Origin: Botryllus schlosseri
Taxonomy: Eukaryota
DNA: 64,000 nucleotides
NCBI GenBank assembly: GCA_051294905.1
Contig: CM119371.1
Location: 34,350,001-34,414,000 of the forward strand
Reading direction: 5' to 3'
The stretch's first letter is position 1. Every line of letters starts with the position of its first letter. The notes beneath the pieces were generated by a model, which had not been told where the DNA came from, ran no database searches, and was given only the letters and a program-made list of their open reading frames with translations. This document shows positions 12,675-53,746 of the stretch, piece after piece. A program made the translations under genes and the position numbers.

Positions 12675-12685
12675 GGGACTTCCCC
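12675..12685 (+). promoter_or_regulatory. NF-kB/Rel consensus site GGGACTTCCCC upstream of E2 paralogue 1
   Basis: Matches GGGRNNYYCC; about 103 bp upstream of the ATG; equivalent sites precede the other two paralogues. Confidence 0.7.
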
Positions 12686-12787
12686 GCGTAGATATCTGAA
12701 ACAGCAGATTGCAGCAGCCTAACAGCAAATTGAAGGAACTAGAACAAGTATCTGCTAGCGATGTCGGTCTACTAAGCTAATTGTGAT

Positions 12788-13333
12788 ATGGCTTTAAAGA
12801 GGTTGCAGTACGAATACAAAAAATTTACAGAAGAGCCGATAAATTCTGCCATTCGAGCAGGACCAGTCGACGATATCGACCTGTATCGGTGGTGGGCTAC
12901 CATCGGAGGACCGGAAGGAACGCCGTATCAAGGCGGCCTGTTTCGAATTCTGATAGATTATCCAACGGAATATCCTTTTAAGCCGCCGAAAATGCGATTT
13001 GAAACGAAAATATTTCATCCAAATGTCAGCCGGAAAGGGACTATATGTGTAGATATTTTGCAAAAGCAATGGTCGCCAGCGCTTACGACATCGAAGGTCC
13101 TGTTGTCCATATGCTCCTTGCTTGCTTCGCCCAATCCAGACGACCCGATGGACCCGGAGAGTGCGACCCTGTATATAGAAAACCCCAGGGAGTACGCCAA
13201 ACGGGCGAAGCAATGGACCGAAATGTATGCCATGGATACCACCGCCCTTAAAAGTAGAGCCCACTCAACGGTGCCGAGATGTTCACCACCAGGGCAGTCC
13301 TTTTCAACTGATGCTCGTATTGAGTCTGTCTAA
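12788..13333 (+). CDS. Ubiquitin-conjugating enzyme E2, UBE2D/Ubc4-5-like, intronless paralogue 1 (181 aa)
   Basis: Complete UBC fold: MALKR start, YPFKPP, HPN motif, catalytic Cys87 (codon 13046-13048) in HPNVSRKGTICVDIL, WSPAL, SKVLLSICSLL, PNPDDP, ending ..WTEMYAM. Followed by a 32-aa C-terminal tail. No introns. Confidence 0.95.
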   Translation: MALKRLQYEYKKFTEEPINSAIRAGPVDDIDLYRWWATIGGPEGTPYQGGLFRILIDYPTEYPFKPPKMRFETKIFHPNVSRKGTICVDILQKQWSPALTTSKVLLSICSLLASPNPDDPMDPESATLYIENPREYAKRAKQWTEMYAMDTTALKSRAHSTVPRCSPPGQSFSTDARIESV

Positions 13334-13456
13334 TTGAGGTGAGGATAAGAAAGATACAGTAAATGTACTTAAGAAGATGATAGTTCTTGATCACTGATTA
13401 TTATGCGCAAGGTTTCCTGCGACTCTCTTTGATACGGTGTAACCATTGGTGATTAG

Positions 13457-14275
13457 TAGGGCGGTTTTTTTTTTACCTAAAAAACAGAAAATTTTGACCT
13501 AAAAAATCAAAATTTTGACTTTTTTTGACCTAAAAAAACTGAATTTTGACCAAATTTTGACCTAACGTATGCAAATTAGGTGTTTTCCCAAATAATGGTA
13601 AAATTGTACCGGTTATCTACATTTCCGGTTGTAACTGGCTGTCCCAACGAAGTAGTTTGGCCTGAAAAAACGTTTTTGGCTTAGAAACAGGCAACTTTGT
13701 ACATATAAAAAACAATATTTTAACGAAATCTGGCTCTATGAAGAATTCCAGTGGTTGCAATACGTATTATGGCGGAAATAATTAAAAAAAAATTGTAGTA
13801 CAACGAGAGATACTTTCCTATATTCTTGTGTAAAAAGTGCATGTCCTTACTTGCCAAGGACGTTCAACAGCAGCAGTTGGCTGACAACACTCAAGTTGTG
13901 CAATGTGCATACACTACTGGTGACGCAATATGTTGCTTCATTCTGACAATGTTGTCTATTACAATTTTTCATCATGCGCTTTTTCAATATAAGAATGATG
14001 CCCCAGTTAGGATATTGCGGTACGTTGACCATTGACCGTTGATGATTCAGTATGAGCAGACAATGCGCCGTTTACAACAGTAGGTATATAAAGTAGACTA
14101 CAAGCTGTAAAATATCAAATGATACGTTCACAGACACTGCAAAATCTACGATACAAACGAAATAAAGACGTAAAAAAATTTTGACTTTATGAACAATTTT
14201 GACAAATTTTGACCTAACGCTACAATTTTGACAAAATTTTGACAAATTTTGACAAGTCAAAAAAAAAACGCCCTA
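13457..14275. mobile_element. hAT-type MITE with AATTTTGAC subterminal repeats, 123 bp downstream of the paralogue 1 stop
   Basis: Ends TAGGGCG(G)TTTTTT / AAAAAACGCCCTA; perfect TSD GTGATTAG (13449-13456, 14276-14283). Confidence 0.9.
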
Positions 14276-17200
14276 GTGATTAGTGATTACAGTCAGTAAA
14301 CCTGTTCATCATCGAAATATACCGACCTTTCGAAATATGTGTTAATGGAGATTGGTCAAAGTTAAACTAAAGCACATTCGATGAGTAATGTAATGAGTTG
14401 GCGAACAAGTCATTCTCGATTGTAATATGACTTTAGCTCGGTTATAGTCCGCGGCGGCAATGTTGCATCTCCCAGCGTGCAAGAAATAATCAGGTATATG
14501 TCTCTTATATATAGCATTCCTTCAATAGTTGGCATAAATATGTAAGAATATATCTGTTGTAACTTCCTCTTTTTTCTTGTCAATCTATTGATTCTAATTA
14601 TAATGTCGAGCTAAGCGGCATATGAAACTCACGGCGATGTACTGGAAATATGAACTTATGAAAGTTATTAGGCTAATGAATATCACAAATTGACAAACGT
14701 CTGCGAACTGCAGTGTTTGCGATGTAAAATCAGTACACGTTAAGACGCATTTAATGATAATCATTGAAAAGTCGATAAAGGACATGGGATAATGGACAAA
14801 TGTACCCAACTATCTCGTATGCACCGCAAGTTTTGCAATCAAATCTTTTTCGATTGACTCAATTTGATATAAACTAGTTGAACATCAAGTTTCACATTGG
14901 ATTATACGTTCTCACACAGCATCCACATTATCGATTTTCTTCGGTTGGATTGCACCACATAGCTCGGTTGCTCAGTAACCATAACATGTTTATTTGAGTT
15001 CGTAACAGCGCGTATGTACTGGCCGAACAAGTGTGAGTTTGTTTGAAAGAGGATGCATACACTATTATGTGTTGATAGCACTTCTTACGGTCGTCCTATG
15101 TTTTGTTGTGAAATAATCTGGTTCGCGTTGTGATGGTGTAGGCCTAATATATGCGCTGGAACCGTGGGAAAATGTCTTCTGCAGAGGCGAGCATGTCAGG
15201 ATCATCGTTTGAGTGGTGGTTTATTGAAAAGTGAATGGATTTCGGCCATAGGAATGGCATTTTGGATCGATTGATGGATCGACATCTAGTTGCACACGTC
15301 TTTGGCAAGGTGCATTACTGTGGAAGTTGAAGACTGCATTTCGTTTTTCATGGACTGTGTTATTGGCGGGACTTGTGAATGCGTGGTATTCGTTGAAGGA
15401 AGACATTAAAAGAACGCTCCCGAATGAGGAATATGACAGTCGATCGGAATCATAGCGTGGAGTTCTTGAAGTTTGAAATGTAATTGCCATGATAGTCTAT
15501 GCTTCATATGTGCGCGCGTGTGAGCTTATAGTTGAATAGTATCCTCATGTGTGATGAGTTCGATATGGTTTTGTTCTGCCGGAAACGGTGGGGGGGGGGA
15601 CAATAATGCGAGATTCTGGGGTGAAAGTATTAGTGTTGTGCTGATTTGATGCAATCGTGCGAATGTAAGTAGTCTCCTACGGTGATGAATTAAAAGATAA
15701 TAACAATAATAATAGTACAACGATAAGTTGCTTCTTGATCTTCAGTTTTTTTTTTGGTTTTCTTCCCTCCACCACCAAACCAGCATTTGAGACATTTTCA
15801 GGCTAGAATCAAGCTCAGGTGTCACATTAACTAAATATGTATTCTAATAACTAAGTAATTTATTGGCTGTGTGTAGTATCGATATTATTTTATCATTCTG
15901 ACTACCGGTAACAATATAAATAAGTTGTACAATTAAAAAACGTTTTTAATTTTTCAACAGGTAGAAAAATATGGAGACCATTTAATTTTCAGAAAAAGGT
16001 GAGGATTCCTGGTTTAGATTCTGCTTTGTTTTAGATTGTGCGTTTCTCGATATGTGCCAAATTGTGCGTGGATGATTTAATGGGCAGTATTGGACACTTG
16101 TCAAGCTGAGTGGGAGGTCGATGTAGCCGCCCTGATTGCGACTGCTCCAGTTGCTTGTGTTGCAGATTACCCCCCGGTGTGCCCTACATAGGAATGTCTC
16201 GCCAAGTCCTGCTCGTCGCATGCCATGTGGTATTACGTTATAGTTATGGCGTTACTCAGTTTGCATGGTAGTATATAGTTAATCATTATTTGCCAAATCA
16301 TAAATCTTTGGTGGTTACCATGTTTAGAGTTACAGATTCCGTTGCTGGGCTGTAAATGGCACTGTATCTAAACATCAGTGCATCAAATTTTGTTGAAATC
16401 GTATTTAATTGCTAAATTTCCAGATTTTCCAGCAATCTTTGACTTTTGTGATAACCATTAACTAAAACACAACAATTAAACTATGTAACCTTCTCACTGT
16501 GTTACTGGAGTAGCGTTTATTATGTTGTAAACTTATCTCCTGCTGATAATTATCTTCTATCTAATAATTACTAACAAAGATGCAATTATGACGGAGGTTG
16601 ATGTAATTATTAGTTCGTTGGATTATCTAGATTGGTTCATGCTTACAGTAACGTAATCCAACTGAGATAATGATGATTTATATCACACATATGAGAATGA
16701 TGACGTACATGTTAAATACACGTCCATCATAATATTACTTTTATTATTACGATGAGTTATAATATAATGTTTTATTGCTTTTTTTCAAGCCTCAAGCAAG
16801 AACCAAGTATCATCTGTGCCTCGACTACGCTGTCTCATTCTCTTTTGCTGCATTGGGTAAAGATAGAATATAACACGGTATCTATGAAACAGATGGGGTT
16901 CCCTGAGCCAATCTAAGGGGTTAACTGTAGGTCAAGACACACACTCAACTCATACATATGATTTTTGATGATATGTCAATCTTAGTTGCAGGTTGCAGGT
17001 AATTAGACCCGATATGTAGTCAAAGTGTTACTATTGTGGTGGCATGTAGTGCGTCGTAAATGTCGTATACGCAGCGTAGGTCGGAGTTGGAAAGCCACCC
17101 CCGTCCTTCCATTCCTAAGCTCATTTGCAATTAAGCAATTGGTATAACGCTGTTGCGTTTCGACTGAACAATATGATGACACTTTCCAAGGTGAAGCCTC

Positions 17201-20491: not shown

Positions 20492-23400
20492 CATTAAGAT
20501 AAATAGGAAGGTAGAGTGAATTGCTTCAATTAATTATTTCCTGTGCACTTAATCCTTCATAATCTGAAGCTTAGCACTTAAGAAAATATCTGCAATATAT
20601 TGCATATTATTGTCTCGGTGCAACTGCGAACATGTCGGTATGATCCATGTGTACTGGACTTTACAGTATAGGAATGTTTTGGAAAATTCTCTTATGTGAA
20701 CGTGATGTATAAAGTGCATCTTGTGAACGTTGATTTGCTCTGTTGAAAATAAGCGTAGCTAACTAGCTATACAGTGACACTGGCGCACGCGGATTAAAGG
20801 AATCGTGATATTTAACATTAAATTTGCACATAACGCCCATTCTTTTGGTCGTATTCTTGTCAGTTGGTAGTTAACTCGTCTCAATAGTTAGTAATTGGTA
20901 CGCAGCACTGCTATACAATAGCGTGCAGGCGTAGAGAGGATTGCAGACTATTGAAAAGCGAATCAATATTCAGCAATGCGTAACTCGGCGGCAATCGTTG
21001 AGTTTTGCAAACCAGCATAACGTGGGTGATTCCCCGGGTATATAATATGACGGGAAAAGATGCGATGACATGGCGAGACAAATGGGCTATAAAGCGGCGC
21101 CAATCTCCCGCCGTTACTTGAGTAGGTACTTCCTTTGAAAATTCCGGGAGATTTTCTCGGATCAATAAATTGTAAGTATTTATAATTCTAATCTAGTTTC
21201 CGGCTCTTCTGAAGATGTTAAAAGAAAACTGTATAGGGCGAAATGATCCAAGCTTGGTGTACACTACAGTGTACAACATGCATGCATAAGCAGGTCGTGT
21301 TATATTTGGCATTCAACTCGCAATGCGTCGTGCATGTACCGGGCTCAACTAGATACCGACAAGTGACTTTAAGCGGTAATCCGGGACTACGAGTGTTGTT
21401 GTTGTATTGAATTATAGTGCTCGGCAGCAGTGGCATTGTGCACCAGATCGCTTCTATTTGCATTATTCAAATAAATGTCTCTTCCGGTCAGCAAAACAAA
21501 TTCGATTGCTGGGAGATTACGGCGGGACTGCGAGTGTATCAAGCTTAGTAAAATTGGTACACGCAACTGATGATTTCCCACGAGAAAGCTCGTATGTGCA
21601 ATCAGTAATTCTAACACAAATGGGGTTCCGAATAGCTTTTCTCGCGTCAATTGTTTGCTGGTTATAACGACAAATCAGACTGGATTGCTGTATTTCCCGA
21701 TCAACCTTCGCAAAGCTTTTGATGGAAGAAAGTAATTCCACTTCTCAGGCATACAAAATAACACACTGCCAAAATTGCCAAAGGCTATGTATAAACTTCC
21801 AACACTTACATAGGAATCCCGAGGTCAACTTCAGCTTTACTTGAACTCACAATCCACATTTGTGTAGCAGCTGCGTGGAACGTTATCTCGGCACTAGTGT
21901 ATATGGATGGGTGAAAGAGTGCGCAATGGCGAGAAATTTTGAAAAATGCAAGTAAACAATATCGCAGTGGTGTTACTGAGGAAGAAACCGCGCCGCGTAG
22001 GCATATTCCACTGAGATAACTTCCCTCTTCCGACGTTCGCATCAAGTATATTTCATTGGCATATCACAGTAGCACAGCCTATCGCTGTGCCGTGACAGAT
22101 GTTGTGACTTGGTAATTGATGAGACCATGCTAATGGCTGCAGCAGTAGTTGACTCTGACGATATTGAAACATTACAGTTGAATTCATGAAGTTGGGCATC
22201 TGTACGTATGCCAATGGCTTTCCACTCGCCACAGACGCGTTGGAATTGTGAACACAGACTTCGCTAACAGTTTAGCTATGCGTTCAATTGTGAATATGTG
22301 ACGTAGTACCTTCTTACGTAGCCTACGTAGCCTGAGTGTGAAAAATGCCAATGGGATGGGAAATAACATGTAGCTAATTGAACAAGCTACCATTTTGGGT
22401 TTATATATTTGCAATTCTGAGTCTGATGGGGTCAGTGCTTTACCAAACATAAAACTCGCCGCATGTCGCTGGCGTAAACCCGACAGGTTCTGATTTCTTC
22501 GAAAATAGAAGTGCATGTATAAAATACAACTGTCCCCCACATACCGGTTGGTGTACTAACTCCCGTATTTCCGTCAGCACGATGACCGTATATGCATTCA
22601 ACAGGGCCTTGCCAAGCGCATTCGCCCAGCTGATTCATGCTGCTGTGCTGGCATATAGGGAAGATTTATTAGCACAGACATTATGCGTATCTGCACATAA
22701 CTGCTCAAAACTTTATCAAGCTAAAATGCTATGCACCTGTCGAGGGGAAGAAAGAGATTCAATCTCAGCCGCCGTGGCAATTAATTTCGACTCCTCGCTA
22801 TTTCGTACCGGGGAAAGTCCCTTGAGAAATGCCGGCCGGTAAAATGACGACGCCGGTTAATAATGGGAAATGTAAACAACACTAAGCGCATAGTGTGAGT
22901 TACAATGACTCTGGATTGTTGATGTTTGCTATGAAGATCGACTTATCTGTTTAAACTGATTGTTCTCCTGCACAAGCTCGTTATGTACCCAGATATATAG
23001 GATCTGCATACAAAGTCATTGCATGATATCACAAACTGCGAAGTCGAGTATGGCTCACCATCACAAGCTTCATACAATGCGTGGCTTATATTCAAACCAC
23101 GTTTTCAAACATGTATCGTTAAGAAACGCTCCGTAACGCTCACGACAGATAAGGATATCGATTGAAACACAGCACAATACAGAGTCGGACTATAAATAGA
23201 GCCACAAGTGATGTCACGTTCGATTACAATCATATCCGTTTCACGTAGTCTGTATTCCAGACAGCATTACACCAAAATCAATTTTCAAAAATCGTCAAGC
23301 ATGCTGGCCTACTCCTTCGAGCAGATATTGATCACAGGTGGAGCGCATGCAGCAGTGCATATTGGGGTTAACGACCGTTTTCGGAATGCGAAACTCGCGC

Positions 23401-23996: not shown

Positions 23997-24942
23997 GACT
24001 AGCTTATCCCGCCTTATCAAGACAAAACGTAGCATGGATATGTGATATGTATGCTCTACAATAAATGCGGTCAGACATAATGAGTTTCCTCAGACATGAT
24101 GAATCAGATGGATTCAGATGAATCAAAGCATTATTAGTCGATGACGTCACGGAACAAGTCTCCACAAGGCACAGTTCTCTTATACGAAATCACGTCAACA
24201 AAGTCACCTCTGTTAAAATCGCATATGGAACTGGCTGTCGATTCTGCATAAGGGGGAGGATGAACTTCGAAATCGGAGATGAACAATGAGACTGTTCTGA
24301 TACTTGGAATGTGAGGAAATGATAACATGCAGTCTGACCTCTGACGTATAACATAACAAGGTCATGATACTTCCTATGACCCCATGTGTCCTTTGAAACG
24401 CTTTGGGAAGGTCAGTACACCGAACTAAATCCAGACCAGCATGATGAAATGCCAATAAATCACCAAATGCACGGAATCATACCAGTCAGATGACGGTAAG
24501 CACGGTTGCAGGGGTCATCATTGCAACAATCTCAGCACGAGCGGCAAGAAATTAAGCATGCTAAATTAAAAAGAGACCTCAGATCCGATGAAACGATACC
24601 AACAAGTTACTTTATATATAACATTGGTTGTTCGCTGGGCCAATCTCAAGAATTCACCTAATATCAAGAAACACACCAGACTCTTAGAGAATAAATAGGT
24701 CGCATTGAGATGCATCAAATATTCATTATAATAATTTTGTTTAGATATAAAATCATGTGTTAATGCTTTGTTACTTTTGACGCTGTTGGTTTGTGCACCG
24801 GAATTCTATAGCAGTGTATTACGCATGTAAAGAAGTAGGGCTTGTTGTTGTGACTCAGCAAAAATGTTAGGTTTGTCGAAGGCCTGCAGATTAGCGAAAC
24901 GGTTCCCACTATTAGTAAAGGTTATGAAACATTGCTCTATAA

Positions 24943-25399
24943 TAGGCTTACCATACGTCCTCTTTTAAGAGGATTTGTCCTCTTTTTTGACTTTTTTGAA
25001 AGTGTCCTCGGAGGACGCTCTTTTGTCCTCTTTTTTGAGATTTTGTCCTCTTTTTTGAAAATTGAGGTCAGATATAGAGGAAATTGCGAGTGATATGCCG
25101 CAAATTAGCGCAGAAGTGAAGCTCCGGCGGGTATTTCGGAGGAAAAGCGGTGATTTCAGCTCTGAGCGAAATGAAGACCTTTTTTTTTTTTTTTTTTTTT
25201 TTTTAGTCATCCACCTGGCAATGTAGAGTAAAAAACGTTATTTTGAGATCTGAGCGGAAGTGAAGACCTTTTTTTTTTAGTCAACCGACCGCAAAGTGGG
25301 ACAAATTCACCGGTTTTTGAGAATTCTACTCCGGTTTTGTATCTTGCAAATTTCTGAAAAAGTGTCCGCCTTTTGCATTTTCAAAATATGGTAAGCCTA
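24943..25399 (+). mobile_element. hAT (Tip100-like) MITE, TAGGCTTACCATA family
   Basis: 13-bp TIR TAGGCTTACCATA; TGTCCTC repeats; internal GAAGACC-poly(T) units; perfect TSD CTCTATAA. Confidence 0.9.
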
Positions 25400-25815: not shown

Positions 25816-26160
25816 TTGTATTGTATAGTATTAATGGGGCACAACACACTTGAGCTTATCGCCTTTTTAGGCCCTGCGTTCCACTATTGAAATTTCATAA
25901 TGTTCATGGGTTTTGATTTCTTATATTCTTGGGTGCGTCTTTCAGCCTCTCACGCAATCATTGTTCGGTCGCTCTCAGTCCCATGCGTCCGATCGTGGTC
26001 GTTACTCCAGACTTATAACTCGGCTCACTTTTCACGCCTGGGCTTTTCAACGCAATGCGGTTGCAGTGAGGTCGGCGATGAGGAGCCCAGATAAACCTCC
26101 GACAAGCAGAAGTTGATCAGATCCGAGATTCGAAACCGCTTCCATTGGTGTCGTGACGCC
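25816..26160 (-). mobile_element. tRNA-derived SINE (family I), degenerate
   Basis: Shares GGTCGGCRATGAGGAGCCCAGATAAACCTC and body with 41124-41427; B-box-like GGTTTCGAATC on the minus strand; boundaries approximate. Confidence 0.7.
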
Positions 26161-28005: not shown

Positions 28006-28740
28006 CATAGTGTCCTACAATGGTGTTGACACGGCTAAGTCGCACGGCTCACTGCGATTGGTTTACGTCACACTTTCCATTTGACCAAAGAGCTATTTTG
28101 CGGTGTTTGTTTGAGGTATTCATGGTGTTTGTCGACTACAATGGCTATTGACACGAGGCCGATATTTCCTATGTTTTTATTCCGTAGCTGCCGACTTGTA
28201 GCACGGCCAGTTTCTAGGCGTTTAAGACACCGCTTACATTGATGAGATGGTGTGGAGAAGCCTAGATAAACCTCTAACACTCGGTAGGAATTCTGGAGTC
28301 GAACTCGAACCCGCAACCAATTTGTGTTGTTGTAGATGCAAGTCCGGCCGAGGTCGACTCCAGAATACCTACCTAAGTGTTGGAGGTTTGCGTTTGCGGT
28401 AATTTTTAACGGGCTTGCCGAGGGCCAAACTTGATATAATTAGTATCAATCGAAAACTGCCGCTGTATTGAATACGAAGACATAAATTTTATTCGGCTCC
28501 CGACCCTGGAACCTCCACAATTAGGATTGAATTTTGCATCGCGATGGAGTTTGTCATCGTGGCGTGCAATGCAGTCGCTAAGCAGGTGACGAGCAGCGCA
28601 AACCGCAAGCGTATATGCCATTGTTGCGTAAGCGATTGAGCTTTTACATTCTCACTCTCGCTTCGTACTTGCTCCTGGTCAGTGAAGCTGTTTGGAATCA
28701 TCATGGAAAATCTACGCACGTTAGTGGATATGACATATCT
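28006..28740. mobile_element. Diverged relative of the 11134-11801 foldback family, interrupted by a SINE
   Basis: Starts CATAGTGTCCTACAATGGTGTTGACA; 28420-28660 resembles the arm and loop of 11134-11801; right boundary approximate. Confidence 0.55.
28105..28392 (-). mobile_element. SINE (family J) with an inverted duplication at its 5' end
   Basis: Body homologous to 8201-8363 and 33353-33625; flanked by TTTGCGGT (28097-28104, 28393-28400). Confidence 0.75.
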
Positions 28741-29704
28741 GTGAAGTCGTTATCAAGTCACGTCAATTTCAAATTGTCATAAAATAGGTATATGGTCAAA
28801 AATACTAAATGATCTTTAATATGGTGAAGAACTGGCATTATATTCTTTGTGGTCGCATAAAAGGTACTTATTTGAAATCCCCACGTCATTCATGCGGTTG
28901 TGACGTCGTAATGAGTAATACTCTAACATTCGACTCGACTCGAATCCTAAAACTCGATTCTGGATCGAATCACTCAAGTGCTCGAATTTGCATAGCCCTG
29001 CTCCCTACGACCAGCCATACGATATAGAACATTGCAGTCTATCTATGCACTGAGTGGTGTATATGTATAGAATGTAACCTTGCAGCAGTTTCAGTGTCAG
29101 TATATTATTATTTTAATCATTTCAAAACACCACACAACTGCGATAAAATGCAAAGGAAGGTGTCGAAGTGACTTCGAGTAGTCTTGGAAATAAGACACCC
29201 ACCTGGACCTAGGGCCTAGGCGATGTAAAAAAAGAGGCATGCACAGTGCACACTGCATGAAAAGTAAAGCAGAGAATATAAAAGGCAAGCGACAGAATGT
29301 GGTGGCATTTTGCGGAAGGATGAGATTGATATGCTAGGTCGTGGTCCAGTAATCTTGAGGGCTGACTAGTATTCATGCTTACAAACATTTCATCCCGTCA
29401 TTCACTCGTGATGAAGTGTATTTCTGCAAGTACATGCCCTTTAGCATCACATTAATCTTTTTCATTTGGGATTGAACATCGAATGTTCTTGATACGTGTG
29501 AATCATTTCGTACATCGATATTTCGAGCCCGTATAATCCTGTGAATGCGCCTGGTGGAGGAGTTGCTCATACTTACCGACGGTGTGTGGCTAGTTATACA
29601 TGAGCAATGTCTTTCAGTGCGGATGTTATGATTCAAAATCGTGCGGCTTGAGCTAGCGCATGCAATGACACGTCTGCTAGTCAATTCTTTACTCCATGCT
29701 ACCC

Positions 29705-29715
29705 GGGGAACTCCC
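29705..29715 (+). promoter_or_regulatory. NF-kB/Rel consensus site GGGGAACTCCC upstream of E2 paralogue 2
   Basis: Matches GGGRNNYYCC; about 73 bp upstream of the ATG; TATA-like CATATATATAC at 29738-29748 lies between it and the ATG. Confidence 0.7.
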
Positions 29716-29787
29716 TAGGAGTTGTGTTTGCGAATGGCATATATATACGCCAGACTACCGGTAACATTATTTCGCTCGAAGTGAAAC

Positions 29788-30309
29788 ATGGCTTTCAAGC
29801 GACTAAAGTACGAGTACAAGAAATTCCTGCAACAGCCTAGCAATTCTCCCATTAGAGCAGGACCGGTCGACGATTCAGATCTGTACCGGTGGTGGGCAAC
29901 AATCGAAGGACCTGAAGAAACGCCGTTCGCAGGCGGATTGTTTAAAATATTAATAGAATATTCAACGGAGTATCCGTTTAAACCGCCGAAAATGCGATTC
30001 GAGACTAAGATATTCCATCCCAATGTAAGCAGAAGAGGGACGATATGCGTAGACATTTTGCAAAAGCAATGGTCACCAGCGTTAACTACATCGAAAGTGC
30101 TTCTGTCAATATGTTCCTTACTGGCTTCTCCTAATCCGGACGACCCGATGGATGCAGAGAGTGCAGATTTGTACTTAAAAAATAGAGAATTGTATTTCGA
30201 ACAGGCCAAGCAATGGACGGAAATGTATGCCATCTCTCACACTACGCCTTGCAAGGGTAAAGTTCCGTTGCATACGGGCACATCACGAGACGCTATACAG
30301 GCCAATTGA
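29788..30309 (+). CDS. Ubiquitin-conjugating enzyme E2, UBE2D/Ubc4-5-like, intronless paralogue 2 (173 aa)
   Basis: Same UBC motifs (HPNVSRRGTICVDILQKQWSPAL, PNPDDP). Core protein near-identical to copies 1 and 3 with many synonymous differences; distinct C-terminal tail. Confidence 0.95.
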   Translation: MAFKRLKYEYKKFLQQPSNSPIRAGPVDDSDLYRWWATIEGPEETPFAGGLFKILIEYSTEYPFKPPKMRFETKIFHPNVSRRGTICVDILQKQWSPALTTSKVLLSICSLLASPNPDDPMDAESADLYLKNRELYFEQAKQWTEMYAISHTTPCKGKVPLHTGTSRDAIQAN

Positions 30310-31778
30310 ATATGATGTGTGCCGGTTGAGGAGAATTTATTCACAGTTTTGATTATGATAAAGTTTGGGATAGTTGGAGCGATTGCAAAACATGATTTAT
30401 ACATGTATCGCGGTCGATTGCTGCCTAACATCAAATACACAGAACAGGACCGATGGACATCCGCGATTTTGCCTGAATTCAAGCCTCTATACACGGCGGT
30501 TCCGATCGAATCTGCTGACGTGCATTGATGGTTTACAGCTGTGTGTGTTTACAGTTTATTTCGCTGAATTTCCTTATTCATGCACTGATCATTCGGATAC
30601 TATATGGATCATGAACTCGAAAACAAACAAATATAACTCGCAAAGCCTTTATTTCACATAAAAAATCTTTTTTATGCAACCGCAATCATAGTTTTATGTT
30701 TTATTTGGCACAGTGAACTCATGATCGATAAATTGCTACATCCTTCAAAATGTGACCGTATGTGACCGTATTCTCGACGTTATTCATCGTAGAGTCGAAG
30801 CATAATTGAAACTTTAATGCTTGAATACAAAAACTACGTATCCCTCTTATTCATACTCTTCACTGTGGCATTTCTTTTCTCACTTTTAAAGTCCGTTAGA
30901 TGGCCGAAGTTATTATCCAATATTTTTATACGATTCATGTATGAGCTTACAAAATTAAACGAAATAAAATCACAACTACTGTCGCATATAATCGTCAATT
31001 CACACATATTATTAGTAAGCTTTCATGATCGCAGTTTAGACAGTTTCAAGCTTTCAAATCTTCGTGACCAAAGTGCACTAGGCAACAGAAAGCGAACGAG
31101 TCACACGTTAACTTTCCATGGAGTGTCGAAGGGCGGTTTAGTTGCTATCGCTACAGCCTACTCCATTCGAATCTCAAGAGTGAAGATTATAGTACTGTAA
31201 AGACAACCGCAATGTAAATACTGATTATTAACGAGATGGTGGTTCGGTAGCTGCAGACATCGTAGAGACACACGTAAGTAAACATCCGTCTGTCATTTCC
31301 AAAATCAGGATTCGTGTCCCTTAATACGCGTTAACGCACATAACAAAATACAATCTTCATTCTTCTCACCAGCACTTATTTAACACATTCACTGAAGACA
31401 TTACCAATAGTCCTGCGACGTCAGTATTGATATGCACGGGGCCTACGATAGGCCCCGATATGCACTTCCTCGTGAGGCATCACCAAACAATTCCATGATC
31501 CCTGCTGTACAGTGTACATGTACAATTGAACATTGTACAGAAAAGTCACTATCTGAATCCAAATGCTCCATACTAGCACAATCAAATCCCAAATACGAAT
31601 ACAATCGCGGATGGGTTAACTTATATCAGTAAACGCAAACTTCACTTAACCTGCGTAAATTTCGTAGCGTGGTACGATCCAGCCAGTATCGGTAACGATG
31701 TACTGATATCAGGGAATACATATACATCAGATCTTCCCTTACCACTTACACTTAACTGAAATAGTTCAGTGTTTAGAC

Positions 31779-42901: not shown

Positions 42902-43209
42902 GGTCCGTGGACATATGAGCATGCGACATTACAGCATGCGATACTTCGGCATGCGACAATTTGGCATGTGACACATGAGCATGTGGGTTAAATTACGGGT
43001 TAGGGGTAGGTTAGGGTTGCATTTATGGTTGGGTTGGGTTAGAGTTAGGGTTTAGGTTAGGTTAGGCTAGGTTAGGTTAGGTTAGGCTATGTCTCGGGTT
43101 AGGGTAAGTTTTTGGGTTATACAGTCACATGCTGAAGTGACGCATGCTGATGTGTTCCATGCTGAACTGTCGTTTTCCATTATGTCGCATGCTCATATGT
43201 CGGGCAACC
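42902..43209. mobile_element. MULE/Mutator-type palindromic MITE with central (TTAGG/TTAGGG)-like repeats
   Basis: Perfect 9-bp TSD GCTCACAAT (42893-42901, 43210-43218); inverted arms GACATATGAGCATGCGACAT with repeated GCATGCGAC units; GG..CC termini. Confidence 0.85.
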
Positions 43210-44638
43210 GCTCACAATAACTTGGTTTCACAGGATATACGCAGGTCATCTGGCCCCTCAGGGAGTTGCAAGGGCCCGCCTCCGATTGAGTTTCTCCTTA
43301 TTCATCTCGGCGCCACTTAGACGAGTACAGCCGACTGCATTACCGGTACCACGCAGTACACAAGTGTATTCTCGACTTAGTCCTCGAGATGAATGAATAA
43401 CAGGATATTGCGCAAGCGCATCCACGTATAAAGACATGTTTGTAAATGACCGAATTATTTTTAAAACACTTCCTTTCTACCCTATTCAGTAACAGAAAAT
43501 GTGAAATCCTAGTATATACCGTGAGTTTAATAATTTCAGGAAGTGAAATTTTAAGCACACTAATGTTGCATCAGGTTCATATCCCGACATAGCCGGCTCG
43601 GATTTATTTTGTCAACGGAATTTCGTTTTCTACCCAAATCCCTATCCGTTCCAGAGATTCTTTCAAATGCAATCAATTTCTTCGAGTCCTTTGCTGTTCA
43701 ACCTCAAATATATATTCGCTCATTGCCGGCTGATACCGAGTCGTGATTACGGCCTTGATATGCAAAATTCCACAATTTCAACTCGGAATTTTGTCTCTGG
43801 CTGTTAGAGTCAGTCATGTCACAGCTACTCGCGTCATTCGACTGTAAATATTTTCCACCTTGGGCAATATGAATCCGTGTGGTATTTTCTCATTCCATAC
43901 TCGTCACCTAATAGCTATCTTTGATCAATCCATTCCTTTGATATGTTTGATACTATCGTAATTATAGTATTACAATCACGTACCCTTTTACGGCATGAAC
44001 CATTACGAGTTACTGGTTTTAAATTTCAACTCCAAATAGAACACACTATTCATAGCCTACCATTAGAGTCGCGAGATATTATTGGAATAATCACTCCCAT
44101 GTTCAAGGAAACGTAGACTGAATATTTACATCCAAATATGAATTGCGGTCGCATCGTGAGTATTTCTATTTAATACGATTTGTCCTTGAAATATCAGCAG
44201 CACTAACAGATATGAAAGCACGATGTCATCGTTATCCTCACGACTTTATAAAACCATCTTTATCAAGATATAGGCCTACGCTTGAGGTACATTCGTAAAA
44301 CGAGTCTAAAACAAACATTTTACATATTAATATCCGTGTCGAGTAGGCTATATTGGAGTGATATAATATATAGGCAGGATTATTATAACATCCGTATTTT
44401 GTCTTCAGTTTTCAGGTGAGGTCACAAATCACAATAGCTACATGCTCGATACGAAGACCTACAAATTAGCATGGTCGTGAAACGTCAGGCATCTTGATCG
44501 GTAGGTTTGTGGTCATGATCAATCTCCGCAGGTGAGACAGAAGACCTGATTATATTAAAACTGGTATCCACTGCTTCCGCGATTGGCGCATTTCCGGGAC
44601 AGGATGGAGCGGTTCTAAAAGACTTGGAAAGTCTAAAC

Positions 44639-45702
44639 CAGTGGTTCCCAACCTTTTTTGACTCATCGCCCCCTTTTGAAGCTTCACACCGATCATCGCC
44701 CCCCAAATAATGGGAACCGAAAAACAGCACTTCGTCAGCCCCCTCCCCTTCCCCCGAAAAAAAGACGTTGGTCTTTAGACCCATAGGGTGATAAACCAAA
44801 CCCCAGACCCCCCTCAGCCAGTGGGCTTTTTGTCGTTACATATCAGCTATACCCTATTTCATGTAATGTTTGGTGAGTCACCGTATTTCGCCTAAACGCG
44901 CCAAGCGCGACAAATTTATAGAATTCATGTTTGAATAGGCCAATAAGGTCGATGTGGTATGTTGGAAAAGGTAGGACCCCTAAATAATAATTAAACATCT
45001 TCGGGCGAAATCGTTGTTATATTGACTTCTTTACATGATGCTATTTTGTGACCTCCTATATCTGCTACGTCAGAAGATATGGAAACCAAACTAAAAGACG
45101 CACATGATTTCATATTGGTATTTCTTTACTGGCAAATAATTTTTTCCTTGCGGGGTGGCATTTGTCCTGTAGAAGGTCGCAAGGACAGGAACATTCGACG
45201 CCAGTCATTGAGGCGCCTATGGACAATCAAACATATCTGTATATACATCGAAGTTTTCGGTCTTCTCGCTGCTGATCGTTCTGGCACACTTCTCGGAGTC
45301 GCATGTTACATGGCCTCTAATTTCAAATGTCTTGGTGCGTCGTGGCGCGGTAATGGCCCACGCCGAAGTCTCCCATTTCCATAAATCATGCGTATTTTTG
45401 TTGGGTGACGGAGACCCCAACATCGAGATACATGAAAATATGAAATCGCACCAAGCGCGAAAAATTTTTGAAAAAGTCGCATGAATTTCTAAAAAATCAC
45501 TCTATCATTCATGTTAATTCTCGAAATAGTTTTGGACTTCTTTCGATTTCGGGCCCCTCACCCCCAATTGGGGGGTTTGGGATGCGATGGTTAAGGTCCC
45601 GACTCCAATATAGCCGTTTTAACGTGCCATCGACCACCTATCGCCCCCTTCGTTATTTTCGCCCCCCCTAGACCGCCAAATCGCCCACGTTGGGAACCAC
45701 TG
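44639..45702 (+). mobile_element. hAT Charlie/Buster-like element, family F copy 1
   Basis: TIR CAGTGGTTCCCAAC; ATCGCCCCC motifs; perfect TSD GTCTAAAC; near-identical inverted copy at 48254-49408. Confidence 0.95.
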
Positions 45703-47139: not shown

Positions 47140-48253
47140 TATCTCTCTATCACAGTTAAATGGTGATTTGCTGCATGTCGTGTACGTGCAGTGTGTACTG
47201 TGGAAAATACCGTCTGCCTTGCTATCCCATTGTGTATAAAATTGCTGGATTTGGATTTGACTCGAGAAATCCAGTTTTAATGATATTGTTTCTACCGTTG
47301 AGCCATTCATTGACTTGGAGAAGTGGCCGAAAGTTTATGACCAGAAAGTGTAGACTGAAGCCTATTGATTTACAGACCTGAGCTGGATTAGGCGTATATA
47401 TTACATTCCATGGCGAATGCGGTCTAACGCCGCCACTGATCTCGCTAATTCTTTACCATATCTCTGCAGCTATCAAACATTAGCAGATGCCACGAATAAA
47501 ATTACATAGCTTGCGGTATATCTGGCATGTATACCAGTATTTAAGATATGTCTCGATACGGGATGGGTCTGTAAATTCCAGATCCGTGAATTACGTCATT
47601 TGTGACCTAGAGCACGCAAACGCGTGTCACACGACCTAGACGAAGCAACTATACTTATAGTTTAACTCCCTTTTTATTCTCAGAATTCCACCAGCACCAC
47701 TATACGTATATTGTTATATTAAGTTCAATGGTGGTATGAAGAAAAAAAATTGCGCATATTTCGTGTGAACATTACATAAAACTAGGATTTTACTTTGTGA
47801 GCCATCCACATGTAAGTTTATCTTCATGAAATTATTGTTGTTTGCACGACCGCATGTGTTGTACAGTTATGAGTTCGTAAAGTGGTTGTTTGTTTACTAC
47901 TTTGCTGCAGTTTCCAAGCAAGATACAGCGGTATCGTCCTTGTAGATTTCGGCCATTTACATATGGCAATCCGACCTTTCGGCCATTCGCTTAGACCAGG
48001 GGTGTCAAACTCAACTCGGGTCGCGGGCCGGATTCAGACGTGTTGATCGCCCGCGGGCCGGACCATGTCAAATTATTCAAAATGTGACCTCCGAATCCAT
48101 ACCGTCGTTTTTCACTGGAATGCTTTATTATCAACCGTCATGCAAAATAGTATTGTATATTATATCACGGATGATATGGGCTCTATTCTAGCAACTCCGT
48201 TATCCGCAAACAATGAAATTGACAAAATGCGATGACTGGCCGATTGGTTACAC

Positions 48254-49408
48254 CAGTGGTTCCCAACGGGGCGATGTCGCCCCCCAGGGGGCGATTTGGC
48301 GGTCTAGGGGGGCGAAAATAACGAAGGGGGCGATAGGGGGCGAAAACGGACGAAGAGGGCGATATGGGGGCGATGGTGCGTTAAAACGGCTACATTGGAG
48401 TCGGGACCGTAACTACCGCAACCCAAATCCCCCCAATTGGGGGTGGGAGGCCCGAAATCGAAGGAAGCCCAAAATTATTTCGTGAATTAACATGAATGAT
48501 AGAGTAATTTTTAGAAATTCACACGACTTTTTGAAAAATTTTTCACGCTCCGCGAGATTTATAATTTTTATGTAGCTTGCTGTTGGGGTCCCCGTCACCC
48601 AACAAAAATACGAATGATTTATGGAAATGTGAGACTTGGGCGTCGGCCATTACTGCGCCACGACGCACCAAGACATATGAAGTTAGAGGCCATGTAGCAT
48701 GCGACTCCGAGAAGTGTGCCAGAACGATCAGCAACGATAAGACCTTGGCCGAAAAGGAATGCCGTTGTGTTGACCGAAAACTTCGATATATATATACATA
48801 TATTTTTAATTGTCCATAGGCGCCTCAATTGCTGGCGTCGAATGTTCCTGTCCTGGCGACCTTAACCCTACAGTACAAATGACATCCCGCAAGGAAAAAA
48901 TTATTTGCCAGTAAATAAATACCAATATGAAATCATGTGCGTCTTTTAGTTTGGTACGTTTTGACCATTTCCATACCTTCTGACATAACAGATATAGGAG
49001 GTCACTAAATAGCATCATGTAAAGAAGTCAATATAACAACGATTCCGCCCGAATATGTTTAATTATTATTTAGGGGTCCTACCTTTTCCAACATACCACA
49101 TCGACCTTATTGACCTATTCAAACATGAATTATATAAATTTGTCGCGCTTGGCGCGTTTAGGCGAAATACGGTGACTCACCAAACAGTACATGAAACAGG
49201 GTATAGCTGATATGTAGCGACAAGAAGCCCACTGGCTGAGGGGGTCTGAGGTTTAGTTTATCACCCCATGGGGCCAAATACCCACGTTTTTTTTTCGGGG
49301 GAGGGGGGATGACGAAGTGATGTTTGTCGGTTCCCAATATTTGGGGGGCGATGATCGGTGTGGAGCTTCAAAAGGGGGCGATGAGTCGAAAAAGGTTGGG
49401 AACCACTG
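48254..49408 (-). mobile_element. hAT Charlie/Buster-like element, family F copy 2 (inverted)
   Basis: TIR CAGTGGTTCCCAAC; perfect TSD GGTTACAC (48246-48253, 49409-49416); reverse complement of 44639-45702. Confidence 0.95.
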
Positions 49409-49447
49409 GGTTACACTTACAAACTACGAAAACGATGGCTCTAATGA

Positions 49448-50010
49448 CGAGAGAGAGAGAGAAAGAGATTTATTTCTTCGTCAACCGGAATAAACAGCAT
49501 GAGTATGCAAAAAAATACTCCGAGCAAAAAAGCACATACACAAGAATAATAGCGTGTGACTGGGTCTATAATAGTATTGACGGAGAGCCGACAAAAGCCG
49601 GAACCTTGGAGATTAGAAAGAAGTATATAGATACATTCAATCATGCTTACTAGTTATGGTGGTTTGTAAAAAAACGTAAATAGAAAAACAACAACGAAAG
49701 TACACAGTGCGATCCCTTGATGCAATAGCAGATGGGGAATACATCCGATTAGTACTTACTGAGAAGTAAGTCAAGCAACAGTGCCTTAAATGACGGAAAA
49801 CTCATACTTTTCAGTCGCAGGGACAATTTATTCCACACATCAATTCCAGCACGCTTCAAGGGAGGAAAAGCATTGTCGGAATTAGACATAAACAGGTTGG
49901 AAGAGCTCTTGGATCGAGTACCGTAGTTGTTTATATGCACGAAGTATTCAAAGTAGTTTACAAGTGAATTTGGAACTTGTTGTCTGTTAAACTTATACAT
50001 GAACTTTGCT
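49448..50010 (-). mobile_element. 3' end of a CR1/L2-group LINE (ORF2 C-terminus plus 3' UTR and microsatellite tail)
   Basis: ORF 49749-50000(-) MYKF..VP..YF..HINNYGTRS..LF..G..VWNKL..LK..SFK..LLSKY is the typical CR1/L2-group ORF2 terminus; minus strand ends AATAAA followed by (TC)n. Confidence 0.8.
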
Positions 50011-52313
50011 AATTCAAAAATATATACGTCCTCAACTTTAAGAATGCGGAGTTTCTTATAATATGGAGATATGTAAGTTGGAATAATTCAATGATCTCGT
50101 TGCTTTGATCGTGATGCGTCGTTGGCTTTGTGTATTCATGGTGTGGAATATGAGAGATTTTAGACGGGGGCGCTGGCATTTCGTTCATCATTTTTATATC
50201 ACCAATTCACCATTCGATTTCTCTGACGACCGCGGCTGGCGCCTTTTCGGTCAGAGTAATATAAGCAGCAGTGCGAGCAGTGATATTTGAATTCTATTTT
50301 TCTTGTAGCGAATATATTCTCCATATGTTACATGCAACGGTTTCGGATTGTCGTTTCCTCCTTTGTGAATAACCGTTATTTGGTCCCTTTTCCCAGAACA
50401 CTCAGAACATAATAGGCTATTTTGCCTGCCCATAATGTATTGTCAATGTCACCACTTTGTTCCTGATGGTTACTTAAGTGAGAACTCAACACTGACGACG
50501 ATCGTTATACTGTGGTCGATGAACAAGCTCGACATTTACTACTATTAGAAATGTAGGCCTACTGTATAATAGGCTACATCGCAATAATTCTTCAATTTAT
50601 TCAGAATGACCTCGCGGGACGGATGAAATGGTCTGGCGAGCCGTATGTTTGACACCCCTGGTTTAGACTTTAGGTCGTATGTGTGGCACCGGTGGTCTTA
50701 ATACTGTAAAACTGTAAAAACAAACATAAAGTTCTGTACCTCCAAGAAGCGCTTAAAACCAAAAATATGTTAGCACCAATTTTCCTACGAAATGAAATCG
50801 ACTTATTGGCGATTTTAATCAATCAATAAGCGTGTATTTAGTATTTACATTATAACTTCTGTGACTGTATGGCAAGATCAGGATTGCATTGGCACTTATT
50901 TTTGACCAATCTCAATTGCACTATCTAATTAAAATCAACTGTGGCAGATATGTATTATACTGCGATATCATAGTTTGTAAGACAATTTCAACGATCCGAT
51001 AAATCTACTTACAGAGAGGATGTGCATATAGAATAGATGATTAAATGACTTATTGTTCAATCATCATGACTCATGCATCAAATTGCGAATAAACGATATT
51101 CTAGTATGCTACTCGTATAGATGATCTCGCACCCTAGTTTTAAACTTTGTATATCAGTAGCGCGGTATGACTTCATTACATATATGTCTCATTCACGAAC
51201 ATGGGTTGATAACATTCGGCTACCGAAATATGGTATCTGTTCTTTGTCACGCCATAATCGGCAGATCCTTCAGCGTGATGACGGAATATTTTCGCCATCC
51301 TGTCACTTGGTGCTTAATCGGATGACGTAGTTGTGAACAATTTGCGAGCAATTGAACGTATTCTGATTATACCAACGATCACCCAATATGGAAGGCTTCT
51401 TCAAGACTTCTTCGAATACTGTTGAACGAAAAGTACGGCAAGCAAGACCATACCGGGAGATACGTGTGAACGTGCGTCAGTCGAATATATTAACATGTAT
51501 GAGATAGGAAATGAGACTATGTAGTATCGTGTGCAAATTACTTCACATTTTCCGATACTCCCAATTGGTCTGATTGACGCGCGTATGTTGAATCTTGGTG
51601 ATAACTATTCATATTCAGTCTAGACGCAAAGGCAATGCAAATTTTATTTAGATGTGGACTTGCCTTACTCCCATGCAATCACTGCACTCGCTGTCTTTCT
51701 GAGTAGGTTTACTGACGCAGATGCACAGTATCTGAATAACAATAGATAATCACATACCTAACGAACTCTGGTAGTGATAAAGGTTATTTCTTTCCTTTAT
51801 ACAAAGATACTAACCAAATTCTTGGCAACTGGAAACCGTCATTATATTCATCAATGATAAAACAATGGTCTTCTTTCAAATGGCTGGAATTTCCATCTGC
51901 TCAGCGCAAAACTTTCTCAATTAGCCTGCCGATATTAATCATGATTACAAATTTGGTTCAAATATTTGGGCATTTCAACTAGCAATTCATAAAAATTTAC
52001 CAGACTTTTCATATGAAAACCCCTGGACTGATTTTATGGAAATGTAGTATTTGAAAGTCCGGGATCGCTTGAAGGTGCCCCTGTGAGCCTTTTGAACCAG
52101 TGATTCTCGACCATCTTAATTTGCAGGCATATTTTTCATTCACGGAGTAAAATAGCAATGGAAATATAGAATTAGCCTATTGAACAATGAATGCATTATA
52201 GTTCTATTGAAGTAGCAAGGGTTTATTTGTAGGCATATACATGTGCTATTAATCTATCTAAAATATTGAATCTATTCCGTTACGAACCACCTCTTGGTAA
52301 ATGTATATATTAC

Positions 52314-52825
52314 CAGGGTTGTAATGACTCGAGCCATGACTCGACTTGACTCGATTCATTTTCTTAAAATACGGAAATTACTCAACTCGACTCGGGTTAA
52401 TCTGTGTATTGACTCGACTTGGACTCGAGTCATTGCGCATGACTCGGATCAAGTCATATGACTCGAGAATCAGATGGCCAAGACCGACTTTTCATTGTAA
52501 TTTCGAAGGATAGTAAATTAACCACGCTATTGGGAGTTCATTTAATAGTACTGGTACGTGAAAACTCGACCATGCAGAACCTGTCAAAATTGAGGAAAAA
52601 TAGTATATTATAAATGCAAGCTGTTCGATATCACCAAACCTAGTTATAAAAAATACTTTAACTGAAAACTGAGCAGTAAACACAATGACATGGACTCGGA
52701 CTAGATGACTTGGACTCGGACTTGACTTGGTGGTGAATTTAAAATGACTCGCATTGACTCGAGTCTAAACTATAAAAGTAACATTGGCTTGTGACTTGGA
52801 GCCTTGCAACTTGGTTACAACCCTG
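52314..52825 (+). mobile_element. GACTCGAGTC-rich hAT-type MITE (family H)
   Basis: TIR CAGGGTTGTAA/TTACAACCCTG; TSD TATATTAC/TAGATTAC; about 330 bp upstream of the kB site of paralogue 3. Confidence 0.88.
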
Positions 52826-53155
52826 TAGATTACTAATCCACGGATGAATACGCAACTCGCGGTGGTCACGCTTGGACAAGCAGTGTCTCTAATTGCCGAT
52901 TTTCAGACTTCGAAGGCTGTTTTGAGGTGGTTCCATTTCCCTGAAAAGATTTTAATTTGTATTGTCGGAATCAGTGCGACACTAGGTTTCGATAAAGACC
53001 AGTTTTAATAAATTTCAGCCGTCGGGTCACAAGCTATAGCACTACCAATTATGCTGCTTTTAGATTGCTCAGCAATAAGAGAGACTGCTTGCACAAGCGT
53101 AACATAGAGTGGTGTGGGAGTTGCGCATCTATCCGTAGGTCTGGTTGTTACACCT

Positions 53156-53166
53156 GGGGAAGTCCC
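53156..53166 (+). promoter_or_regulatory. NF-kB/Rel consensus site GGGGAAGTCCC upstream of E2 paralogue 3
   Basis: Exact reverse complement of the copy-1 site; about 65 bp upstream of the ATG; CATATAT about 25 bp downstream of it. Confidence 0.7.
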
Positions 53167-53230
53167 ACATAGGTTTTCAAGATTCGACGTTCATATATCG
53201 TGTGTATTGGCAAAATAAGAGAAAGAAGCC

Positions 53231-53746
53231 ATGGCCTTCAAACGACTGCAGCATGAATATAAGAAGTTTCTGCAAGAATCCAGCAGTTCGCCTATCAGAG
53301 CAGGACCTCTCGATGACTCAGATATGTATCGCTGGTGGGCGACTATTGAAGGACCTGGAGGAACGCCGTTTGAAGGAGGAGTATTTCGAATCCTTATAGA
53401 CTACCCGACGGAATATCCTTTTAAACCGCCCAAAATGCGGTTCGACACCAAGATTTTTCATCCCAACGTAAGCAAACGAGGGACGATATGTGTTGACATT
53501 TTGCAGAAGCAATGGTCCCCAGCACTCACAACATCGAAAGTACTTTTATCTATATGTTCCTTGCTCGCTTCTCCAAATCCTGATGACCCTATGGATGTGG
53601 AGAGCGCCACTTTGTATTTGGATAATCCAGGACTGTATTTCAAGCGGGCAAAGCAGTGGACAGAAATGTACGCTATCGCCGATCCTACAAGTTGTAGCGC
53701 GAAGGTTGCAGTATCACAAGACAGTGTTGACCGGTCACGTAAATGA
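53231..53746 (+). CDS. Ubiquitin-conjugating enzyme E2, UBE2D/Ubc4-5-like, intronless paralogue 3 (171 aa)
   Basis: Same UBC motifs (HPNVSKRGTICVDILQKQWSPAL). Good start context (GCCATGG) and AATAAA at 54024-54029 downstream. Confidence 0.95.
   Translation: MAFKRLQHEYKKFLQESSSSPIRAGPLDDSDMYRWWATIEGPGGTPFEGGVFRILIDYPTEYPFKPPKMRFDTKIFHPNVSKRGTICVDILQKQWSPALTTSKVLLSICSLLASPNPDDPMDVESATLYLDNPGLYFKRAKQWTEMYAIADPTSCSAKVAVSQDSVDRSRK

Follow-up and report, generated by a model that had tools for sequence, protein, structure and literature searches.

A 64,000-nucleotide window of the Botryllus schlosseri genome, by which we mean the whole stretch of DNA analysed here (C1:34,350,001-34,414,000, where C1 is contig CM119371.1 of a 495.5-Mb assembly in 219 contigs), contains three intronless genes for ubiquitin-conjugating (E2) enzymes, named a, b, and c. 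The original prediction read them as an NF-kB-inducible cluster, with a kB site of the form GGGRNNYYCC ahead of every copy. The locus raises the question of whether these short words are functional promoter elements, which factor could read them, and what the enzymes under their control might do. We find that the conserved unit is a 16-bp element shared by most members of a large tandem array of E2 genes, and we put the probability that it is a functional, conserved cis-element at roughly 85%. Its binding factor and the signals that act on it are treated below with lower confidence.

The 16-bp element of the tandem E2 array

The three E2 reading frames and the three GGGRNNYYCC matches were all recovered at the predicted positions. 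Gene a (12788..13333, plus strand) encodes 181 residues consisting of a UBC core and a 33-residue tail, with a short ATG also present upstream at 12761. Gene b (29788..30309, plus strand) encodes 173 residues and gene c (53231..53746, plus strand) encodes 171 residues. The kB-like matches are GGGACTTCCCC at 12675-12685, GGGGAACTCCC at 29705-29715, and GGGGAAGTCCC at 53156-53166, which end 103, 73, and 65 bp 5' of the start codons of genes a (12788), b (29788), and c (53231), respectively. The TATA-like run reported after the gene b site is likewise found, as TATATATA at 29740-29747.

A six-frame search of the genome with the gene b protein as query returned 117 E2-like matches, and 23 E2 loci were located on C1:34,121,100-34,492,664, with 19 of the 23 on the plus strand and a spacing of 10-23 kb. 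The predicted cluster of three stands insofar as three intronless E2 genes are present, but these genes are a slice of this 23-locus tandem array. Near-copies of array members are held by the small unplaced contigs C148, C152, C155, and C163, which look like pieces of an alternative haplotype.

Upstream DNA of 1-1.5 kb was taken for each array member, and the region within 300 bp 5' of the ATG was scored in the 24 members with an intact N-terminus (19 on C1 and 5 on unplaced contigs). The conserved unit is the 16-bp sequence TACCYGGGGANTYCCC (TACC-Y-GGGGA-N-TYCCC), followed by a short gap and then by TATATA or TATAAA. The kB-like unit of the original prediction is present upstream of the genes, but the true conserved unit is 16 bp long instead of 10-11 bp, and in gene a it is inverted. 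The element matches at least 14 of its 16 positions in 17 of the 24 members. In L002, it matches 12 of 16 positions without gaps, a variant that by eye fits the element only when one extra base is allowed, and L018 and L021 show doubtful 13/16 matches at atypical distances. L019, L023, L025, and L027 reach 10-11 of 16 at best within the 300 bp and are counted as having no element.

The script found a TATA-like word in 15 members that carry at least a 14/16 match or the one-base-longer variant, and in 14 of these the word lies 21-42 bp beyond the element. In the window, the gene b element TACCCGGGGAACTCCC (29700..29715, plus strand, 15/16) is followed 24 bp later by the TATA box TATATATA (29740..29747, plus strand), which lies 41-48 bp before the ATG. 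The gene a element (12675..12690) includes the earlier kB match and reads TACGCGGGGAAGTCCC on the minus strand (14/16); the gene c element is CACCTGGGGAAGTCCC (53151..53166, plus strand, 14/16). The script found no TATA-like word for genes a and c, and in gene c an ATATAT at 53193..53198 (plus strand), about 26 bp past the element, was read by eye. The inverted orientation of gene a (L005) is shared by L007 and L008. Furthermore, a head-to-head pair of array genes (L011 and L012, C1:34,187,957-34,190,057) has near-identical promoters, each with a 16/16 element; the C-terminus of L011 is cut off by a stop.

A position count over 15 non-redundant instances gives a sharp 16-bp footprint, in which the 12 positions on each side carry near zero information. 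Little or no variation is seen at positions 1-4 (TACC), 6-8 (GGG), 10 (A), and 14-16 (CCC). TACC is invariant or almost so in 14-15 of the 15 aligned instances, a degree of conservation that equals that of GGG and CCC. Because each instance was chosen as the best fit to a consensus drawn up from these very sequences, the information within the motif is inflated. Besides this bias, the reading of the element as a shared promoter feature has to be set against the four to seven array members without it, the missing TATA-like word 3' of the gene a element in the script search, and the entries on C148, C155, and C163, which seem to be haplotype copies and not independent instances.

A blind 8-mer count and a genome-wide pattern count are free of the consensus-picking bias. 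Over 18 non-redundant promoters, the top-ranked 8-mer is TACCTGGG, which occurs in 6 of the 18, a number reached in none of 200 shuffles; the next ranks are taken by TATA words, plus a 5' untranslated region (UTR) word of one subclade. The degenerate 16-mer TACCYGGGKANTYCCC occurs 11 times in 495 Mb, versus once for the reversed control, and 8 of the 11 occurrences lie upstream of array E2 genes. Downstream of the other three (two on C7 and one on C14), neither an E2 nor a clear gene is present. At a threshold of at least 14/16, the 64-kb window holds the three promoter elements and a single orphan at 21025.

The background frequency of the shorter word was also determined. GGGRNNYYCC gives 12 strand matches in the window, versus 3.69 expected, and none of 100 shuffles reaches 12. 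Seven of these matches are the three promoter sites, and the other five, at 7872 (both strands), 8140, 11583, and 22812, are not above chance expectation. The word is held on either strand by 7 of 399 window tiles of 160 bp, three of which are taken to be the promoters, and the chance level of about 1% per promoter window estimated in the original prediction is about right.

The conservation of the element was compared with the divergence of its surroundings. In a blastn comparison of the window with itself, homology among the units is confined to coding sequence (12788-13233/29788-30233, 29787-30234/53230-53677, and 12855-13227/53298-53670), and MAFFT on the flanks yielded spurious columns only, with the motifs out of register; the flanks are unalignable, as had been claimed from inspection by eye. 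A maximum-likelihood tree of 50 E2 translations splits the array family into clade A, which includes the window genes, and clade B, and the element is present in both of these deep clades. Synonymous divergence (dS) and the ratio of nonsynonymous to synonymous divergence (dN/dS) were estimated by the Nei-Gojobori method over the UBC core. For the window gene pairs, dS is 1.66, 2.02, and saturated, with dN/dS of 0.04-0.07; for other pairs with finite dS, the values are 0.14-1.40 and 0.05-0.13; between clades A and B, dS is saturated and dN/dS is not computable. The E2 family is under purifying selection.

Because the genes are paralogous, their three sites are not independent draws, and the motif might be a functionless, passive leftover of common descent, recent duplication, gene conversion, or chance. 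However, dS is saturated both among the window genes and between the clades, the flanks of the 16-mer are uninformative, and no non-coding homology is found by blastn. The spacing to the TATA box is conserved, the strict consensus has a background of about 1-2% per 160 bp, and only one non-promoter 16-mer occurs in 64 kb. Gene conversion would need tracts of exactly 16 bp, which is implausible, and we consider this explanation almost certainly wrong. The retention of a 16-bp word at a fixed distance from the TATA box in about 18 promoters, with saturated dS and randomised flanks, is the footprint of selection; on this point the original argument that selection keeps the site holds.

Two orphan elements lie in the window with no E2 reading frame downstream, namely TACCCGGGGAATCACC (21025..21040, minus strand, 15/16) and TACCGGGGAAAGTCCC (22806..22821, plus strand, 13/16). 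They point apart and are separated by 1.8 kb. One possibility is that they are what is left of a former head-to-head gene pair such as that at C1:34,187,957 / 34,189,602; another is that they are promoters of something unrecognised.

Candidate binding factors and expression

Positions 6-16 of the element form an 11-bp palindrome, GGGGA-N-TYCCC, of the kind that is optimal for the p50 homodimer. Rel-homology (PF00554) exons were found at five places in the genome. The gene on C8 is Rel/Dorsal-like: its Rel exon is closest in PDB to c-Rel and Gambif1 (E 1e-17), shares 67% identity with a Dif-like protein of Styela clava, and encodes the recognition loop RFRYLCEGRSAG (RSAG). The gene on C14 is p50-like, with the recognition loop RFRYSCEGPSHGG (PSHGG), a p50-type loop with the histidine that reads the fifth base of the half-site. 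Profile matches and recognition loops bear out the assumption that this genome encodes both Rel-like and p50-like Rel-homology proteins. Judged by sequence, a Rel/NF-kB protein is a serious candidate for binding the element, at somewhat less than even odds.

Another Rel-homology DNA-binding match (L030, profile positions 1-122) lies at C10:14,106,241-14,106,633 within an uninterrupted open frame of 1711 residues, which is unusual for an animal Rel or NFAT gene.

Several observations tell against binding by a Rel protein. The claim that a kB site precedes every copy is correct for all three window genes, but across the array the strict GGGRNNYYCC word is present in only 8 of the 18 non-redundant promoters (versus 7 of 399 window tiles). 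Clade B carries GGGTATTCCCC, and two members carry GGGAATTCACC or GGGGAATCACC. The conserved 5' TACC flank lies in the centre of the top 8-mer; to our knowledge, TACC belongs to no kB consensus, and we know of no Rel-DNA model in which it is contacted. The extended element is private to the E2 family and marks no other genes in the genome-wide pattern count, so there is no wider regulon to support an immune reading.

An element selected for binding by a non-Rel factor, which would read the whole asymmetric 16-mer including TACC and leave the kB likeness a coincidence, would account for the conservation of TACC at the level of GGG and CCC, the top rank of TACCTGGG, the occurrence of strict kB words in under half of the promoters, and the restriction of the motif to this family. 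In contrast, no known factor could be named whose site fits all variants, and the GGGGA-N-TCCCC palindrome together with the orientation independence of the element suits a Rel dimer. We regard a non-Rel factor as a real contender that falls a little short of an even chance.

Consensus sequences of other factors were compared with the variants by eye. The ZEB/Snail site (CAGGTA/G) fits TACCTG, but not TACCCG, TACCAC, or TACGCG. The EBF site (TCCCNNGGGA) is one mismatch off in every copy, and none of ETS, RBP-J, STAT, HSF, and ZNF143 fits all variants.

None of the runs listed as containing this stretch is recorded as RNA, but reads or a transcript-like contig on genes a and b were found in two runs with unrecorded sample conditions. 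In run X1, for which the RNA label is a guess, a contig of 1184 nt covers 29798-30981 at a word depth of about 50, with almost nothing upstream. This contig ends 13 nt past AATAAA (30963-30968), as expected of polyadenylated mRNA, and the 3' UTR of gene b extends over 30310..30981 (plus strand). About 6% of the bulk RNA run X23 was read, and for each mate orientation the depth is about 3 over gene b and 3-4.5 over gene a. At several places, all reads show the same fixed departures from the reference, as might be expected of a different haplotype or strain. No transcript start was readable in the runs examined, and the sole begin/end row, at 13772, is unrelated.

Induction of the array by immune or stress signals, as originally predicted, is possible but rather doubtful, and a feedback of the E2 array on NF-kB signalling is conjecture. 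The array could instead be constitutive or restricted to a tissue or stage, for example germline or embryo, with the element acting as a tissue-specific and not a signal-induced switch; such expression is common for young intronless duplicates. The low-depth reads on genes a and b in an unchallenged-looking bulk RNA run and the transcript-like contig of gene b in another run would fit this explanation, and the intronless structure and the link to mobile-element cargo described below would give the genes an origin without rapid induction. Nothing direct stands against it, but a TATA box with a proximal palindromic site is generally more typical of regulated than of housekeeping promoters, and we consider constitutive or restricted expression fairly unlikely. 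Concerning the original inference from gene structure, the genes are indeed intronless, but this structure need not reflect rapid induction, as the same lineage occurs as mobile-element cargo.

In the bulk RNA reads, a stretch of about 42 nt at 26062-26104 of the window lies under thousands of reads that run on into unlike sequence on both sides. Reads also link 28207 back to 26062-26063 via about 35 other letters, with the region 28170-28207 involved. The pattern resembles that of a short conserved segment from a family of repeated RNAs with high expression.

The E2 proteins and their relatives in virus-like elements

The three window proteins match the Pfam family UQ_con (PF00179) with E values of 2.8e-49, 1.2e-47, and 1e-47. 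FHPNVS..GTICVDIL is found in all three and aligns to the HPN and Cys85 of UBE2D, and YPFKPPK and WSPALT align with UBE2D chains at the RING-binding loops, which contain Phe62 and Ser-Pro-Ala 94-96. Among solved structures, the nearest are UBE2D1, D2, and D3, together with the equivalents from yeast and plants (about 165-173 bits), in agreement with the original description of the proteins as UBE2D-like. UBE2D1-4/UbcH5 are class I E2 enzymes, with Ubc4/5 in yeast and effete in Drosophila as counterparts.

The array proteins differ from UBE2D/UbcH5 in several respects. They are about 55-60% identical to canonical UBE2D-type proteins in a large database, in which the closest entries, P0004 (66%), P0014, and P0009, are members of the same family. 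Their clade is separate from the canonical-like UBE2D copies of the genome, with a Shimodaira-Hasegawa-like approximate likelihood ratio test (SH-aLRT) value of 100, and they are not orthologous to these. Moreover, the family has been amplified to dozens of intronless copies. The best named relatives, both of the E2 (60% identity) and of the Rel exon (67%), come from the ascidian Styela clava, which suggests that the genome is that of an ascidian tunicate.

Intronless UBE2D copies of canonical appearance, in which CSAGP (Ser22) is retained, form a small cluster at C6:17.84-17.90 Mb (L057-L059) and C9:12.00 Mb (L064). Several of these copies have internal stops, and the 16-bp element is absent from the 200 bp upstream of them.

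At the backside of the enzyme, IRAGP of the window proteins lies over CSAGP in the PDB alignment, which places Arg at the position of Ser22. Across the family, clade A has Arg or Lys at this position, and clade B has Gln or His. S22R, the standard mutation used against backside ubiquitin binding, abolishes this binding in UbcH5B along with its stimulation of the transfer catalysed by the cIAP1 RING (PMC6349121). These residues suggest that the array E2s are active enzymes which would prime substrates but not processively build chains.

Across the family, C-terminal tails range in length from 0 to about 95 residues. Those of L010 and L014 (C1:34.14 and 34.12 Mb) and of P0004 are 50-95 residues long and end in a hydrophobic stretch, and the tail of L014 is common to P0004. 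Such a long, hydrophobic-ended tail may be a membrane anchor.

As for an origin by retroposition, no A-run or poly(A) remnant follows the 3' end of gene b and no intron-bearing parent gene was identified, though the copies are old and the hallmarks of retrogenes could have decayed.

The remaining strong E2 matches are for the most part spread across many contigs, and their scores are nearly the same. These dispersed copies number in the dozens (L037-L056 and L071-L078, for example at C2:36.46-36.49, C11:4.51-4.54, and C11:19.51-19.54 Mb). Among 20 that were taken, 19 fall into three repeat families (named G1, G2, and G3), and the twentieth (L055) is single and divergent. Identity between copies is 94-99.97% over 3.0-3.5 kb in G1, 97-99.9% in G2, and 86-97.5% in G3. 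The DNA around the dispersed E2s consists of densely packed intronless reading frames. In G1, Pfam identified a retroviral-type integrase with a chromodomain and a packaging ATPase of the poxvirus A32 type, and a Bcl-2 homologue and a tRNA-Ala gene adjoin the E2. The same integrase and packaging ATPase are found in G2, where a frame with a caspase domain adjoins the E2. Upstream of the G3 E2 lie a weak Bcl-2-like frame, a leucine-rich-repeat protein, an IS1595-type transposase, and an IAP with three BIR domains plus a RING. An integrase combined with an A32-type ATPase is the signature of Maverick/Polinton elements; no polymerase or capsid of the elements was identified by Pfam, and we therefore call them only Maverick/Polinton-like.

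The tree places G3 inside clade B and joins G1 and G2 to the clade A polytomy. The 16-bp element precedes none of the 19 dispersed E2s whose upstream sequence was read, so it is a feature of the chromosomal array. The window genes themselves are not Maverick/Polinton cargo, with neither element genes nor a repeated multi-kb unit found around them by Pfam and blastn.

These relationships bear on the possibility that the element forms part of a promoter of mobile or viral origin, which arrived together with the E2 from the Maverick/Polinton-like elements. The same E2 lineage is indeed cargo of virus-like elements, and the E2s concerned fall in or beside the array clades. Against such an arrival, the 19 dispersed copies that lack the element upstream include 18 from the three repeat families, and what precedes the E2 at the dispersed copies is a tRNA gene or another reading frame. 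In addition, 40 kb of mobile-element DNA holds no match of at least 14/16, and the window genes lie outside repeated multi-kb units. We consider a mobile origin of the element very improbable.

The recognisable coding content of the window is made up of the E2 genes and two tRNA genes, and Pfam gave no match for the other 138 open frames of at least 72 residues. The tRNA genes form a tandem pair, tRNA-Thr(CGT) and tRNA-Ser(AGA), at 6449-6607, with two bases between them. A blastn comparison of the window with itself shows an inverted repeat of about 1 kb with arms at 44629-45666 and 48336-49418, which are 88-90% identical and have about 2.7 kb between them; this is probably a transposon or a palindromic duplication. 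The region 24680-25313 is a high-copy repeat, in which many short contigs give a summed depth in the thousands in three runs.

Proposed mechanism and comparison with known systems

The array genes carry compact promoters of their own, in which an orientation-independent 16-bp element is followed after about 21-42 bp by a TATA box and after a further 40-90 bp or so by the ATG. The element therefore lies at about -60 to -75 relative to the predicted transcription start, and it has been kept by selection while its surroundings were randomised. We propose that a dimeric transcription factor binds the element and so regulates all of the array genes together. The likeliest such factor would be a Rel-homology dimer, because of the p50-type palindrome at positions 6-16 and of the p50-like (PSHGG loop) and Rel/Dorsal-like proteins of the genome, and TACC may be a family-specific extension or the contact of an adjacent co-factor. 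The layout of a kB-like site and a TATA box before intronless, tandemly amplified genes suggests signal-induced burst transcription. The products would be E2s that are catalytically intact as judged by their residues, with Arg, Lys, or Gln at UBE2D Ser22, a replacement that predicts the loss of backside ubiquitin binding, and they would probably serve RING E3 ligases of the IAP or TRAF type.

Taken to its full extent, this proposal describes a signal-induced (NF-kB-type) battery of host E2s without backside binding, which would start but not extend ubiquitin chains and serve IAP/TRAF-type RING ligases in cell-death or immune decisions. The battery would be in evolutionary exchange with Maverick/Polinton-like virus elements that captured the lineage at least twice, beside IAP, Bcl-2-like, and caspase-like genes, to control host apoptosis. 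As a whole, we consider this picture quite improbable.

If the element is a Rel-type switch, the array would be a simple and readable example, in an invertebrate chordate, of how one inducible promoter design can govern an entire enzyme family, with a defined, mutable site and about 20 natural promoter variants for comparison. Should the factor not be NF-kB, the 16-mer ought still to lead to its regulator, as its phylogenetic footprint is a clean one. The array proteins are naturally occurring counterparts of the S22R mutant made from UbcH5 in the laboratory and could show how a cell uses E2s that prime but do not build chains. The occurrence of an E2 lineage in virus-like elements beside apoptosis regulators ties the array to host-parasite conflict and offers a hypothesis for its amplification; the exchange described above, if true, would amount to a ubiquitin-based module of host versus endogenous virus in a chordate relative, with a defined 16-bp switch. 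In the literature, nothing was found on this E2 family or its promoter in a search that excluded bioRxiv supplements and subscription journals, and no relevant paper was found that joins Maverick/Polinton mobile elements with IAP cargo.

Besides the UBE2D enzymes, three kinds of known systems resemble parts of this arrangement. Mammalian retrocopies such as the testis-expressed Ube2dnl are likewise intronless UBE2D-like paralogues away from the canonical locus, but they are scattered singles, whereas the E2 genes described here form a large tandem array with a shared upstream element. The dispersed relatives recall the E2 of African swine fever virus and the IAPs of baculoviruses, in which an E2 or IAP is likewise found in a viral setting, and the reported cargo-carrying Mavericks of nematodes (bioRxiv 10.1101/2022.07.12.499685), in which cargo is likewise carried by virus-like integrated elements. 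Unlike the virus-encoded E2 and IAPs, the window genes are chromosomal and have a promoter of their own. The promoters of insect antimicrobial peptide and acute-phase genes likewise place a Rel-type palindrome less than about 100 bp from a TATA box ahead of small, tandem genes. In the E2 array, however, the element has a conserved TACC extension and its link to Rel is a predicted one, and the products, in contrast to the secreted effectors of insects, are enzymes under strong purifying selection (dN/dS 0.04-0.13).

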